In this document: positions 24,727 to 28,533 of the stretch, one piece after another
How positions within the stretch are numbered: the stretch's first letter is position 1
Layout of the letters: each line of letters opens with the position of its first letter
Notes under the pieces: generated by a model
What the model was told of the DNA's origin: nothing
Seen by the model: only the letters and a program-made list of their open reading frames with translations
Databases searched by the model: none
NCBI GenBank assembly: GCA_002424305.1
Contig: DIQZ01000045.1
Span: 391 to 63,635 of the forward strand
Reading direction: 5' to 3'
Source of the DNA: Firmicutes bacterium UBA5449
GTDB lineage: Bacteria > Bacillota > SHA-98 > UBA4971
Length of the DNA: 63,245 nt
Translations under genes and position numbers: made by a program

Positions 24727-26139
24727 ATGACCACAAGAAGAATAGGCGAGTCATATGATGTGATTATTGTCGGCGCAGGCCCTGCAGGCATCTTTTCCGG
24801 ACTTGAACTGGCACGAGGGAGGAACGGGCGAATTAGCATCGCCATAATTGAGAAAGGCCCTGATATTGATGCCAGGGTATGTCCTTCTACTGAGCAGAGC
24901 TCCGCATGTAGGAGATGCGACCCTTGTAGTGTAGTGTCGGGATGGGGTGGAGCAGGCGCATTCAGCGATGGAAAGCTGACCCTTTCAACTCAGGTAGGTG
25001 GGATGCTGGACATATACGCAGGTGAGGAAAAACTAAGAGAACTCATCAGCTATGTGGACAAGATTTATCTTGATTTCGGTGCTCCTCCGAAGGTGTGGGG
25101 TGAAGACGAAGAAGCCATACATGAGCTGGACCGTAAGGCTATCCTTGCTGAACTTAAACTAATCCCTGCGCCAATCAGACACCTGGGCACCGGTAAAACA
25201 AAACAGATCCTGGAAGGCATGAAGGATGAGCTGAAACAAAGCACTGACATTATCCTCGGTGAAAGCGCAAAGAGAATTCTGGTTGAGGATAGCAAGGTAA
25301 TCGGTGTTGAAACATCGAAAGGCCGTGTAATCAAAGGCTCTTATGTAATTGTGGCGCCGGGCAGAGACGGGGCGGAATGGTTGTCAGAGGAGGCTCGCAG
25401 ACTCGGCTTGTCCATGGCTATTAACCCTGTAGACATCGGTGTCAGGGTTGAGCTTCCGGCTGTAGTCGCAGAGCCCTTAACCAATGTTTCATATGAGTCA
25501 AAACTGATCTATCATTCTCGGTCATTTGATGATAAAGTCAGGACGTTTTGCATGTGTCCGTATGGTGCAGTTGTCACTGAGAGTTCAGACGGGCTTATCA
25601 CAGTGAACGGGCATACCCATTCAGAAAGAAAGACTGAGAACACCAATTTCGCCCTACTGGTGAGTAAGACGTTTACTGAGCCATTCAATGATCCTATTGC
25701 ATACGGAAAATATGTAGCCGGCTTGGCAAACCTTCTGGGCAACGGTGTAATTGTGCAAAGGCTTGGGGACCTGATAAACGGAAGGCGCTCCATTGAAGAG
25801 CGAATCGCGAAAGGAATAGTTGTTCCTACGTTGAAGGATGCGACACCCGGTGACCTCAGTCTGGTCTTTCCGTACAGACACCTTGTGAGTATTATTGAAA
25901 TGCTGAAGGCTTTGGATGCTGTAGCGCCCGGAGTCTACGGTCGTAATACATTGCTCTATGGGGTTGAAGTGAAGTTCTATTCATCAAGGCTTTCCGTCAC
26001 TCGCTCCTTGGAAACCCAGGTTAGAAATCTCTTTACTATCGGAGACGGCGCAGGTGTTACTCGCGGACTAATGCAGGCATCAGCTTCCGGTGTCGTGGCT
26101 GCTCGTGAGATCTTGCGCAGACTTGATATCGGAGAATAA
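24727..26139 (+). CDS. Uncharacterised FAD-dependent oxidoreductase (conserved family)
   Basis: DVIIVGAGPAG, Cys cluster CPS...CRRCDPC, GWGGAGAFSDGKL, RTFCMCPYG, LYGVEVKFYS, GDGAGVTRGL. Confidence 0.85.
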   Translation: MTTRRIGESYDVIIVGAGPAGIFSGLELARGRNGRISIAIIEKGPDIDARVCPSTEQSSACRRCDPCSVVSGWGGAGAFSDGKLTLSTQVGGMLDIYAGEEKLRELISYVDKIYLDFGAPPKVWGEDEEAIHELDRKAILAELKLIPAPIRHLGTGKTKQILEGMKDELKQSTDIILGESAKRILVEDSKVIGVETSKGRVIKGSYVIVAPGRDGAEWLSEEARRLGLSMAINPVDIGVRVELPAVVAEPLTNVSYESKLIYHSRSFDDKVRTFCMCPYGAVVTESSDGLITVNGHTHSERKTENTNFALLVSKTFTEPFNDPIAYGKYVAGLANLLGNGVIVQRLGDLINGRRSIEERIAKGIVVPTLKDATPGDLSLVFPYRHLVSIIEMLKALDAVAPGVYGRNTLLYGVEVKFYSSRLSVTRSLETQVRNLFTIGDGAGVTRGLMQASASGVVAAREILRRLDIGE

Positions 26140-26159: not shown

Positions 26160-26188
26160 TTGACTTGAGCTTAGGCATATTCTATACT
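26160..26188 (+). promoter_or_regulatory. SigmaA promoter of the leader/ABC exporter operon
   Basis: TTGACT -17 bp- TATACT. Confidence 0.78.
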
Positions 26189-26259
26189 CGAGGTGTAAGA
26201 TTCAAGAGGAAAGTCAACCAAGAAAAGGTATTAGTATGAAGAGAAGGGGGGTCGTTCCA

Positions 26260-26316
26260 ATGATCAGAACCATGATTGGATTTTATGTGGAAACAAGACC
26301 CCGCCCTGATTGCTAG
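26260..26316 (+). CDS. Putative leader peptide MIRTMIGFYVETRPRPDC (an in-frame ATG at 26236 would add MKRRGVVP)
   Basis: AAGGGGG RBS 8 nt upstream of ATG; the 3' codons are complementary to the downstream terminator arm. Confidence 0.6.
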   Translation: MIRTMIGFYVETRPRPDC

Positions 26317-26431
26317 CTAGTAAATAATGTCAGGGTCGTGGGTTAGAAACACCCACGCCCTTTTGACTATGATGGACTGCTTATTGTTTCTGTCATTTCA
26401 GAGAGCCGTGGGAATCCCGCGGCTCTTTCTT
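26296..26431 (+). promoter_or_regulatory. Transcription attenuator with mutually exclusive terminator/antiterminator helices
   Basis: Hairpin GGGTCGTGGGT/ACCCACGCCC+TTTT (26333-26364) and AGAGCCGTGGG/CCCGCGGCTCT+TTCTT (26402-26431). Alternative pairings: 26298-26309 with 26330-26343, and 26352-26375 with 26390-26412. Confidence 0.7.
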
Positions 26432-26473
26432 AATCTCTGTGGGTTTGATGTGAGAAAGTGAGGTTTTATCAAA

Positions 26474-27328
26474 ATGCAGTCCGCACTGGAATGTTGTGAT
26501 GCCAGAAAGGTTTTCTACGTGAAACGAGAGAGAAAGAGTACTTCGATGCTAACTCGTCTCTTTGCTAAAGTTATACCTAAGTATGAGCCGGTAGAAGCAG
26601 TAGACAGACTTACTTTTCACGTGAAGCCCGGGGAGATATTTGGTATCCTCGGTCCTAACGGTTCAGGAAAATCGACTCTGATACGATTGATCTCAACGCT
26701 TCTTCTGCCTGATGCAGGTTGCATTACAGTCTTTGGGCATGATGTAGTCAAGGAGAGGTACCAAGTCAGGAAGCTAATTAACAGGGTTTCAGTGGACGCT
26801 GCCTTTTTTAAGGGGCTCTCAGCTATGGAGAATTTAAGCTATGCAGCAAGGCTCTACGGGCTTGAAGGCGGGGCTTGGCAGACTACGGCTACTGACATTC
26901 TCTGCCGTCTGGGTCTCGAAAGCGACAAGCTTCATGAACCGCTTGAGGATTTATCCAGGGGGATGCAGCAAAAAATCGCTGTGGCCAGGGCTCTTCTCAC
27001 CCGTCCCTTGTTGCTCCTTCTGGATGAGCCTACAACAGGGTTAGACCCTGTGTCCAAAAGAGATGTTCAGGATTTTGTCCTGGAGGAAAGAGAGCGTCGT
27101 GGGACTACGGTAGTCCTTACCACCCATGATATGCAGGAAGCTGATAGACTTTGTGACAGGATTGCTGTTATTGACCATGGCAAGTTTGTGGCCTTGGATA
27201 CGCCTGAGGGACTTAAGTCCCTTATATCAACCAATGGTGAGAGCGTAACCTTGGAAGAAGTCTTCTTTAGCTTGACAGGCAAAACATTGAGGAGCTCAGG
27301 AAGATGCGAAAACGGAAATGCAGTCTAG
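26474..27328 (+). CDS. DrrA-like ABC exporter ATP-binding subunit
   Basis: Walker A GPNGSGKST, signature LSRGMQQK, LLLLDEPTTGLD, H-loop TTHDMQEADRLCDR. Confidence 0.92.
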   Translation: MQSALECCDARKVFYVKRERKSTSMLTRLFAKVIPKYEPVEAVDRLTFHVKPGEIFGILGPNGSGKSTLIRLISTLLLPDAGCITVFGHDVVKERYQVRKLINRVSVDAAFFKGLSAMENLSYAARLYGLEGGAWQTTATDILCRLGLESDKLHEPLEDLSRGMQQKIAVARALLTRPLLLLLDEPTTGLDPVSKRDVQDFVLEERERRGTTVVLTTHDMQEADRLCDRIAVIDHGKFVALDTPEGLKSLISTNGESVTLEEVFFSLTGKTLRSSGRCENGNAV

Positions 27329-27357: not shown

Positions 27358-28173
27358 ATGGCACCTATGCTGGACTTTAATAGGGAGCTCCGAAGGAGCT
27401 ATGCTTTGGTCGAGCGAAATTTCAATCTGATAAAGAGGTACCTCGGCTGGGAAGTTGTGTTCATGGTTTATACAGTGGTCAATACTTTGACAATAGCGTT
27501 TATCGGTCTATCGCCTGACGGGTCAGGACAAGATAGAGTCCTTTATCTGGTGGTTGGGGCTTTGCTTTGGGGATTCTTGTCTGTTCTTTTCCACGAAGTT
27601 GCTGAATCTGTGCAGTGGGAGCGGTGGGAAGGGACAATTGAATACTCTTTTATGGCGCCTATGAGAAGATTTACATATCTTGGCGGAGTATGCTTATTCG
27701 CTGCCGCTTATGGGGCCATAAGGACAGTCATAGTTATGTGCGCGGTAGTAGGCATTTTTGATCTTGATCTCGGCTCTGCGAACCTTCTTGCCGGGCTTAT
27801 TGTACTTCTTCTGTCGAGCCTGTCATTTATCGGGGTAGGACTCATGGCTGCGACACTTCCTCTAATGTCCCCTGAGAAGGGGTCGCAAGCAGCGCACATA
27901 TTGGAGGCTGCGATTTTATTGGTCTCAGGTGTATATTACGATGTAAGTGTATTGCCTGTATGGATGCAAAGGCTATCCAAAATATCACCTGCTACCTATA
28001 CATTGAGGGCAGCACGGGCAGCGCTTCTGGACGGGGCGTCCCTCTTTGACATAAGAAGTGATTTGCTGGTGCTCTTGGCTACCGGAGCGATTTTGATTCC
28101 ACTGGGATTACTGGTTTTCAACCAGGGTGAGCTCTACGCCATGCGCACGGGAAAGCTGAAGCGGAGTGGGTAA
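27358..28173 (+). CDS. ABC-2 type exporter permease
   Basis: Six TM segments, WERWEGTIEYSFMAP, VSGVYYDVSVLPVWMQ...SPATY. Confidence 0.9.
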   Translation: MAPMLDFNRELRRSYALVERNFNLIKRYLGWEVVFMVYTVVNTLTIAFIGLSPDGSGQDRVLYLVVGALLWGFLSVLFHEVAESVQWERWEGTIEYSFMAPMRRFTYLGGVCLFAAAYGAIRTVIVMCAVVGIFDLDLGSANLLAGLIVLLLSSLSFIGVGLMAATLPLMSPEKGSQAAHILEAAILLVSGVYYDVSVLPVWMQRLSKISPATYTLRAARAALLDGASLFDIRSDLLVLLATGAILIPLGLLVFNQGELYAMRTGKLKRSG

Positions 28174-28215
28174 CATTGTGCCAAGATTCATCTGTTGGGT
28201 ATCCTGTTAAATCAA

Positions 28216-28244
28216 TTGCTGGGGTATAGTGTTTGTGCTATAAT
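28216..28244 (+). promoter_or_regulatory. SigmaA promoter of the rpmE operon
   Basis: TTGCTG -17 bp- TATAAT with extended TG. Confidence 0.7.
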
Positions 28245-28301
28245 ACTTAATTGGCGAGGTTGTGGTTATTAACTGCATAGACTCGCAGGGAGGTGGACTT
28301 A

Positions 28302-28505
28302 TTGAAGAAGGGAATACATCCTGAATACTCTATGACTACTGTTACATGTGCGTGTGGGGAGAAGTTCGAGGTTGGCTCGACTCGTAAGGACTTGAGGGTA
28401 GAGATCTGTTCAAAGTGCCACCCTATGTTCACCGGCAAACAGAGAATAGTAGATACAGGTGGCCGGGTGGAGCGTTTCATGAAGAGGCACAAGCTCAACA
28501 AGTAG
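28302..28505 (+). CDS. rpmE: 50S ribosomal protein L31 (Zn-binding type)
   Basis: [35 protein letters not shown] start 8 nt after GGGAGG. Confidence 0.97.
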
Positions 28506-28533
28506 TCTTAATCTGGTACGGGGGGCGTGCGGC

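Follow-up and report, generated by a model that had tools for sequence, protein, structure and literature searches.

In Bacillus subtilis, the bmrCD genes are preceded by the bmrB leader, which combines a promoter, a translated leader ORF and a series of anti-antiterminator, antiterminator and terminator structures (PMC4191407). Translation of this leader is needed for inducible read-through into the ABC exporter genes, the ribosome acting as the sensor of translation inhibitors, and a start-codon mutant showed lower expression and was non-inducible (PMC4191407). Layered control with a short uORF near the 5' end was also described for the vmlR leader of B. subtilis (PMC9226507) and for msrD (PMC10314930). 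For vmlR and the ARE-ABCF genes, a ribosome stalled in the first codons favours an antiterminator over the intrinsic terminator, and NusG-dependent pausing and (p)ppGpp effects are known for the vmlR and msrD leaders. The attenuators of trp, his, leu and pheL rely on a leader peptide and a chain of alternative hairpins, in which the position of the ribosome decides whether the terminator forms, and an untranslated leader terminates. The chloramphenicol-inducible cat and cmlA leaders, on the other hand, operate by translation attenuation, unmasking the ribosome-binding site of the resistance gene, and do not work through terminators.

The leader described here lies in a window of 63,245 nucleotides, which is the whole stretch of DNA analysed, from Firmicutes bacterium UBA5449. 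It occupies an intergenic gap of 334 nt before an ABC ATPase gene, with a FAD-dependent oxidoreductase gene (24727-26139) on the other side. The element is very probably a ribosome-mediated (leader-peptide) transcription attenuator gating the ABC ATPase and ABC-2 permease operon. Its assignment, as an uncatalogued member, to the known class of ribosome-sensing transcription attenuators is well supported by sequence comparison: it has its own promoter, a conserved uORF, terminators before the gene, and a mutually exclusive antiterminator strand overlapped by the uORF. The layout would consist of six successive segments, S0 to S5, each complementary to its neighbours, with S1 being the last sense codons of the uORF. 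The features, all on the + strand, are as follows.

26160-26188, + strand: promoter of sigma-70 type, TTGACT (26160-26165), 17 nt, TATACT (26183-26188)
26243-26251, + strand: strong Shine-Dalgarno sequence GAAGGGGGG, 8 nt upstream of the uORF start
26243-26255, + strand: segment S0, putative anti-antiterminator strand, made of the Shine-Dalgarno sequence plus spacer, with the pairing part at 26246-26255
26260-26316, + strand: leader uORF of 18 codons, peptide MIRTMIGFYVETRPRPDC, stop TAG at 26314-26316
26295-26310, + strand: segment S1, uORF codons R13 to D17, pairing with S0 or S2
26329-26344, + strand: segment S2, 3' strand of the putative antiterminator S1:S2 and 5' arm of T1
26333-26364, + strand: predicted terminator T1 (S2:S3 plus UUUU), GGGTCGTGGGT (26333-26343) with ACCCACGCCC (26351-26360), then TTTT (26361-26364)
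26351-26366, + strand: segment S3, 3' arm of T1 or partner of S4
26369-26396, + strand: spacer hairpin ATGATGG...CTGTCAT between T1 and T2
26398-26412, + strand: segment S4, putative second antiterminator with S3, or 5' arm of T2
26401-26434, + strand: predicted terminator T2 (S4:S5 plus UUCUUAAU), GAGAGCCGTGGG (26401-26412) with CCCGCGGCTCT (26416-26426), then TTCTTAAT
26474-27328, + strand: controlled gene 1, ABC ATPase (ABCA/DrrA-like nucleotide-binding domain, Pfam ABC_tran), with its own ribosome-binding site
27358-28173, + strand: controlled gene 2, ABC-2 type permease (Pfam ABC2_membrane)

The general arrangement is shared with bmrB, and by analogy the leader would be off without translation as well as under unimpeded translation, as in bmrB-bmrCD. 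The two systems differ in several respects. No sequence similarity was seen between them; the single bmrB terminator lies inside a 54-codon ORF, whereas here the uORF ends before two terminators that are relay-coupled through S3:S4; the anti-antiterminator strand is here the uORF's own Shine-Dalgarno region; and bmrCD encodes an ABCB heterodimer, while the present exporter is of the ABC-2 (type V-like) kind and its control is predicted from sequence. The vmlR and msrD leaders resemble this one in their short uORF and layered control, but their uORFs are only a few codons long and they control ribosome-protection ABCF proteins, not membrane exporters. The trp, his, leu and pheL attenuators share the chain of alternative hairpins read by the ribosome; here, however, regulatory codons do not occur in a run, the genes under control are those of a transporter, and two terminators are present in place of one. 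An amino-acid-sensing attenuator of the trp/his type was ruled out, the uORF holding no cluster of regulatory amino-acid codons.

The consensus promoter of the original prediction is present, agreeing with the consensus at 10 of 12 positions, with TTGAC and TATACT invariant across 16 aligned leaders, and it is followed by a 5' UTR of about 55 nt before the uORF region. Between T2 and the ATPase start, no conserved separate promoter was found by a promoter scan and in the aligned leaders. The exporter had been predicted to be DrrAB-like, a description that stands at the level of the broad Pfam families ABC_tran and ABC2_membrane and fails at the NCBIfam cut-offs, which were missed both by the ATPase (TIGR01188, drrA; score 243 against 312) and by the permease (TIGR01247, drrB; score 54 against 223). 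Searches of the PDB returned only generic ABCA-like nucleotide-binding domains for the ATPase and no match for the permease. Among the class members the permease is 69-93% identical, and the gene order of TPR protein, oxidoreductase, leader, ATPase, permease and DUF1385 is kept in both main genera. Between the first two beta strands of the ATPase there is an insertion (YVKRERKSTSMLTRLFAKVIPKYEP, window 26474-26600), which in the sister genus (L016-L023, L105, L108) grows to roughly 60-100 low-complexity residues rich in Ala, Pro, Gly, Ser and Lys. Downstream of the permease, a gap of 360 nt (28174-28533; about 1 kb in the sister genus) precedes the DUF1385-prfA-prmC genes, and no Rfam family matched within it. 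Across the whole 63-kb window no Rfam family reached its gathering score, with only tRNAs at most.

The same leader stands before the same ABC ATPase and ABC-2 permease operon at 21 loci of one uncultured Bacillota class, whose members come from digesters and fermentation pits, and six further species of the genus carry it at 72-77% DNA identity. With a covariance model trained on 16 leaders it was detected in 18 of the 22 class genomes, always before the operon and in a single copy save in one genome (G021), where two copies each precede a paralogous ATPase and permease pair. Two genomes missed by the model have the operon with a divergent but clearly related leader, and the remaining two have neither operon nor leader. 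A second copy in the window's own genome was sought and not found. When the model was run on 400 genomes of the window's phylum, only weak matches were obtained outside the class; two of them (L109, L110) were inspected and showed no likeness to the leader, L109 looking like an ordinary pair of terminator hairpins. In the second leader of G021 (L108, 1354-1527) the uORF reaches 57 codons and includes a tandem insertion in frame, GVYGVYGADGADGVY; 5 extra nt separate its stop from S2, and all helices are kept.

The uORF is present as predicted, and its start, ribosome-binding site and frame are conserved in all 21 class leaders, with GGGAGG or GGGGGG 7-8 nt ahead of the ATG or GTG start. An in-frame ATG at 26236, which would lengthen the uORF, is confined to the window's strain and lacks a ribosome-binding site. 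The uORF is 18, 23, 28, 38-42 or 57 codons long in the class, the differences all being multiples of three, and 17 nt separate its stop from the T1 core in 17 of 19 leaders measured; at this fixed position TAG, TAA and TGA all occur within the window's genus. Since start and ribosome-binding site are conserved, length changes stay in frame, the stop position is fixed and three stop types are used, the uORF has, by its sequence features, the character of a translated ORF. The peptide itself is another matter: variability at the three codon positions is nearly flat (genus, 0.35/0.32/0.32; sister clade, 0.23/0.27/0.32), and because the three positions vary almost equally, most of the peptide appears not to be under selection. 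The exceptions are Ile2, Thr4 and an Arg-Pro pair six and five codons before the stop.

Several other readings of the coding region were set aside. The longer uORFs (38-57 aa) have a hydrophobic middle, and a lipoprotein or signal-peptide reading of them was rejected, the Cys not being conserved. A monitoring peptide of the SecM, MifM or RAPP type was ruled out because an 18-residue chain never leaves the ribosomal tunnel; moreover, an ABC-2 pump lies downstream and the motif is R-P-x-x-x-x-stop. The R-S-A-P of Chloroflexota relatives merely resembles RAPP. A +1-frame mini-ORF, MRGLTLPxSW, overlaps the 3' end of the uORF (L019 1949-1981) in 9 of 12 sister-clade leaders, with its own GGAGGG 11 nt upstream, and ends at the conserved CUGGUAG that follows the uORF stop. 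The other 3 of 12 lack the ATG, and the mini-ORF is probably a by-product. A link with release factor 1, suggested by prfA downstream and by the TAG that ends all sister-clade uORFs, was rejected because the window's genus uses TGA, TAA and TAG, and because a stall at the stop codon would give OFF, the wrong direction for RF1 feedback.

The conserved residues bear on whether the peptide acts in the sensing. The conservation of Thr4, Met5 and the R-P six codons before the stop suggests sequence-specific sensing, for which a generic model has no need. The original prediction had pointed to R-x-R as a macrolide-arrest motif, and as the sensing motif it did not hold: RPR occurs in 4 of 7 same-genus uORFs and is replaced by RPD or RPE in other genera, and a stall there would cover S1, the OFF position, so that a macrolide-sensing +x+ arrest leader was ruled out on both counts. 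A different arrest peptide can be envisaged, rather unlikely in our estimation, in which the same RNA relay operates with a stall that occurs only in the presence of a particular small molecule, either a drug of the peptidyl transferase centre (PTC) or a pump substrate. Its conserved residues would be an N-terminal M-x-x-(Thr/Ala)-Met and the R-P at a fixed distance from the stop, an identification held with equally low confidence. Thr4 is written with all four ACN codons across the class; residue 4 is Ala, Ser or Thr in 13/21 class and 22/42 other-phyla leaders (background 0.25), residue 5 is Met in 8/21 and 18/42 (background 0.018), and R-x(0-2)-P falls within the last eight residues in 21/21 and 34/42, counts that come from related sequences and hence are not independent. 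Chloramphenicol-type arrest needs Ala, Ser or Thr as the penultimate residue (10.1101/2021.06.17.448903), and a stall at codon 5 would fall inside the expected ON window. The Thr or Ala penultimate to the early stall site in the short cat and cmlA leaders provides a lead here, M-x-x-T/A-M resembling their pentapeptide type. Against the arrest peptide stands, besides that non-independence, the nearly flat codon-position variability; the R-P codons, in turn, belong to the S0:S1 and S1:S2 helices, so RNA constraints could explain them, and an R-P stall would occupy S1, again the OFF position.

The RNA features of the original prediction are all present and go far beyond chance. The two U-tailed hairpins that had been predicted were located at T1 and T2. 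Segment 1 (26298-26309) is complementary to segment 2 (26330-26343), 13 of the 15 positions of 26352-26366 pair with 26398-26412 when G-U is counted, and the inner ATGATGG/CTGTCAT hairpin was likewise found where predicted; its place is taken in other genera by a hairpin of different sequence. The duplex energies in the window are -21.9 kcal/mol for T1 and -26.3 kcal/mol for T2, the mean energies of the five duplexes are similar (-24.5, -24.0, -25.8, -19.7 and -23.3 kcal/mol), and the fold of the free leader gave z = -3.0 against shuffles. A simple terminator scan of the window listed neither T1 nor T2. Their U tracts are short in the window's strain, with only four U in T1, and longer in relatives. 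In DNA and RNA contigs from three runs, other strains carry the genus consensus of G at 26319 and A at 26358, and the latter turns T1 into a perfect 10-bp stem; the window's strain thus has two derived leader changes. The loop of the S1:S2 hairpin (26317-26329; CUGGUAAAUAAUG / CUGGUAGAU..UGG) is strongly conserved in all relatives with no pairing assigned to it, and AAAUAAU is also seen after the uORF stop in Chloroflexota leaders.

A covariation search upstream of orthologous exporters, proposed together with the original prediction, was carried out on 19-21 leaders and revealed compensatory changes in each helix. Pairs were counted on alignments of 16 and 19 leaders, with one strand slid by 1-3 columns as the control. 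For the 19 homologous leaders, S1:S2 plus S3:S4 were paired at 93.9% (32-48% with the partner slid) and T1 plus T2 at 97.5% (38-59% with the partner slid). By helix, S1:S2 was 95.5% paired with three pairs changed on both sides, and its lower part was predicted by RNAalifold without any hint; S3:S4 was 92% paired, the paralogue L108 altering both arms yet retaining the helix; T1 (S2:S3) and T2 (S4:S5) were 96% and 99% paired in the 19 leaders, each with two pairs changed on both sides. These comparative data bear out the two predicted states, namely 1:2 + 3:4 for read-through and 2:3 + 4:5 for double termination.

The prediction of five segments has to be extended by a sixth, since the Shine-Dalgarno region of the uORF forms a further strand, S0, which pairs with the 5' half of S1 (the Arg-Pro region) in all 21 class leaders. 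Three different sequence solutions realise the pairing: the window's genus has GGGGUCGU:ACGACCCC, the sister genus GGUCGCGC:GCGCGGCC and the two divergent genomes AGGCCGUACC:GGUACGGCCU. Overall, S0:S1 was 82% paired against 30-45% when slid, with four pairs changed on both sides. In alignment A2, column 246 has one partner in S0 and another in S2, and it covaries with each of them. S0:S1 measures 7-11 bp in the 20 other leaders, and the window has its weakest form (6 bp plus one; -15.6 kcal/mol, z = -1.3). Mutual exclusion between S0:S1 and the lower S1:S2 helix is not strict. At minimum energy, the free leader folds into S0:S1, T1 and T2.

From this arrangement we infer that the switch depends on the ribosome, in which direction it works and what its signal is. 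The OFF state would consist of S0:S1, S2:S3 (T1) and S4:S5 (T2), and it could be reached in two ways. With no ribosome on the leader, S0, being the Shine-Dalgarno region, would capture S1, so that termination is expected when the uORF is not translated; failed initiation, which had been expected to turn export on, should for this reason leave it off, as the free fold and the presence of S0:S1 in 21/21 leaders indicate. With a ribosome at the end of the uORF, S1 would be covered; at the stop codon the ribosome extends over S1 and leaves S2 free, and therefore T1 would form. The latter agrees with the original proposal that such a ribosome masks segment 1 and favours termination, which the comparative data on helices and uORF support.

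A ribosome held back at the start, or no further than about the eighth codon, would bring about the ON state, with S0 occupied and S1 naked. S1 would then pair with S2, stripping the base of T1 beside its U tract, and the loss should be enough to disable T1 because the lower S1:S2 helix takes the four T1 base pairs that abut the U tract. The freed S3 would pair with S4, T2 could not form, and RNA polymerase would transcribe on into the pump genes. When a stretch the size of a ribosome, reaching from the Shine-Dalgarno sequence to codon 9, was blocked in the folding, S1:S2 formed in 19/19 leaders tested once S2 had been made. Under the same block, about half of the leaders go to S1:S2 plus S3:S4 with neither terminator at full-length equilibrium, and since only about half of the early-blocked leaders fold ON at equilibrium, the outcome of the switch would have to be kinetic. 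As for the signal, the likeliest is that translation slows or stops early in the uORF, for example under a ribosome-targeting compound, which may itself be exported by the pump.

RNA data are available from metatranscriptomes. In the biogas metatranscriptome X13, the uORF region of the relative L019 is present as two strain variants, with word depths of 283 and 327, compared with 35 and 64 for the upstream flanking contigs and 70 for a 5.5-kb downstream contig, which begins in the 3' part of the uORF and runs through the pump genes. The leader is thus about 6-9 times more abundant than its flanks in this relative, as read from coarse contig depths from which 3' ends are unreadable, and depth climbs downstream of the equivalent promoter. 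These depths fit an active leader promoter with partial read-through. The window's own leader RNA was found in two metatranscriptomes, only as low-depth contigs (2-20x). Coverage for the window itself is 2-4x, and a contig break at 26413/26450 carries no information on termination.

Leader RNA far more abundant than operon mRNA would also be seen if the uORF were an independent small-protein gene with tandem terminators, the pump being expressed from elsewhere and no switch existing, and the hydrophobic middle of the longer uORFs could be read in the same way. Such a gene is nevertheless extremely improbable: its product is barely constrained in sequence and shrinks to 18 aa in the window's genus, the stretch between T2 and the ATPase holds no conserved promoter from which the pump could be expressed, and S1:S2 and S3:S4 covary, although a plain gene with terminators needs neither helix.

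Beyond the class, the leader was followed through 66 loci of other phyla encoding an orthologous ATPase (55-68% identity). A uORF of 17-35 codons preceded by a Shine-Dalgarno sequence lies just upstream of the ATPase in 52 of the 66, and the model built on the Bacillota class finds matches immediately ahead of the ATPase at more than 20 of the loci, the best with an E-value of 3e-9. The matched leaders carry the same GGYCGUGGGC/GCCCACGRCC stems, usually twice, and the Chloroflexota leader peptides share Ala/Thr4-Met5 and the C-terminal R..P with those of the class. S0:S1 is not general in the other-phyla leaders, and no conserved neighbours of the pump were found outside the class. In some Chloroflexota loci (L043, L046, L062, L029) 0.4-1.2 kb separate the model match from the ATPase downstream of it, and another gene probably intervenes between leader and pump. 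Judged by these sequence matches, the leader family recurs in Bacillota and Chloroflexota and follows one exporter across at least two phyla. Rfam covariance models gave no family matching the leader, even at a permissive threshold, or 11 related loci, and a literature search found no paper describing this leader family.

Conservation of the T1 and T2 stems from Bacillota to Chloroflexota is unusual for plain terminators, and could be taken to mean that the two near-identical hairpins (GGYCGUGGG / CCCACGRCC) are sites for a protein or other trans-factor controlling termination, the uORF being incidental or serving for tuning. We regard this as quite improbable. The frame, start and stop position of the uORF survive many indels, no regulator gene is syntenic across the phyla, the hairpin loops are not conserved, no Rfam family matches, and the possession of two pairing partners per segment can alone freeze the sequence. 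The peptide features that cross the phyla lend themselves to a further and doubtful proposal, that the leader peptide is a new arrest sensor in which M-x-x-(Thr/Ala)-Met would stall at codon 5 with a PTC-binding natural product, both terminators would be turned off through the relay, and the compound would be exported.

Ribosome-mediated attenuation, the reading preferred here, furnishes a testable regulatory model for a widely conserved and uncharacterised ABC-2 exporter that occurs in uncultured anaerobes of digesters and fermentation pits. Three aspects stand out, namely the coupling of two terminators to one uORF, the recruitment of the ribosome-binding site of the uORF as a strand of the switch, and the distribution along with one exporter over at least two phyla. 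Through the six-segment relay, the position of one ribosome could control two terminators in series, and the two partners of each strand may explain why the hairpin stem sequences are near-frozen across phyla. The family is absent from Rfam, and the alignments made here could supply an entry. If the pump is turned on by stalled ribosomes, it would be a candidate intrinsic defence against ribosome-targeting compounds in those communities.
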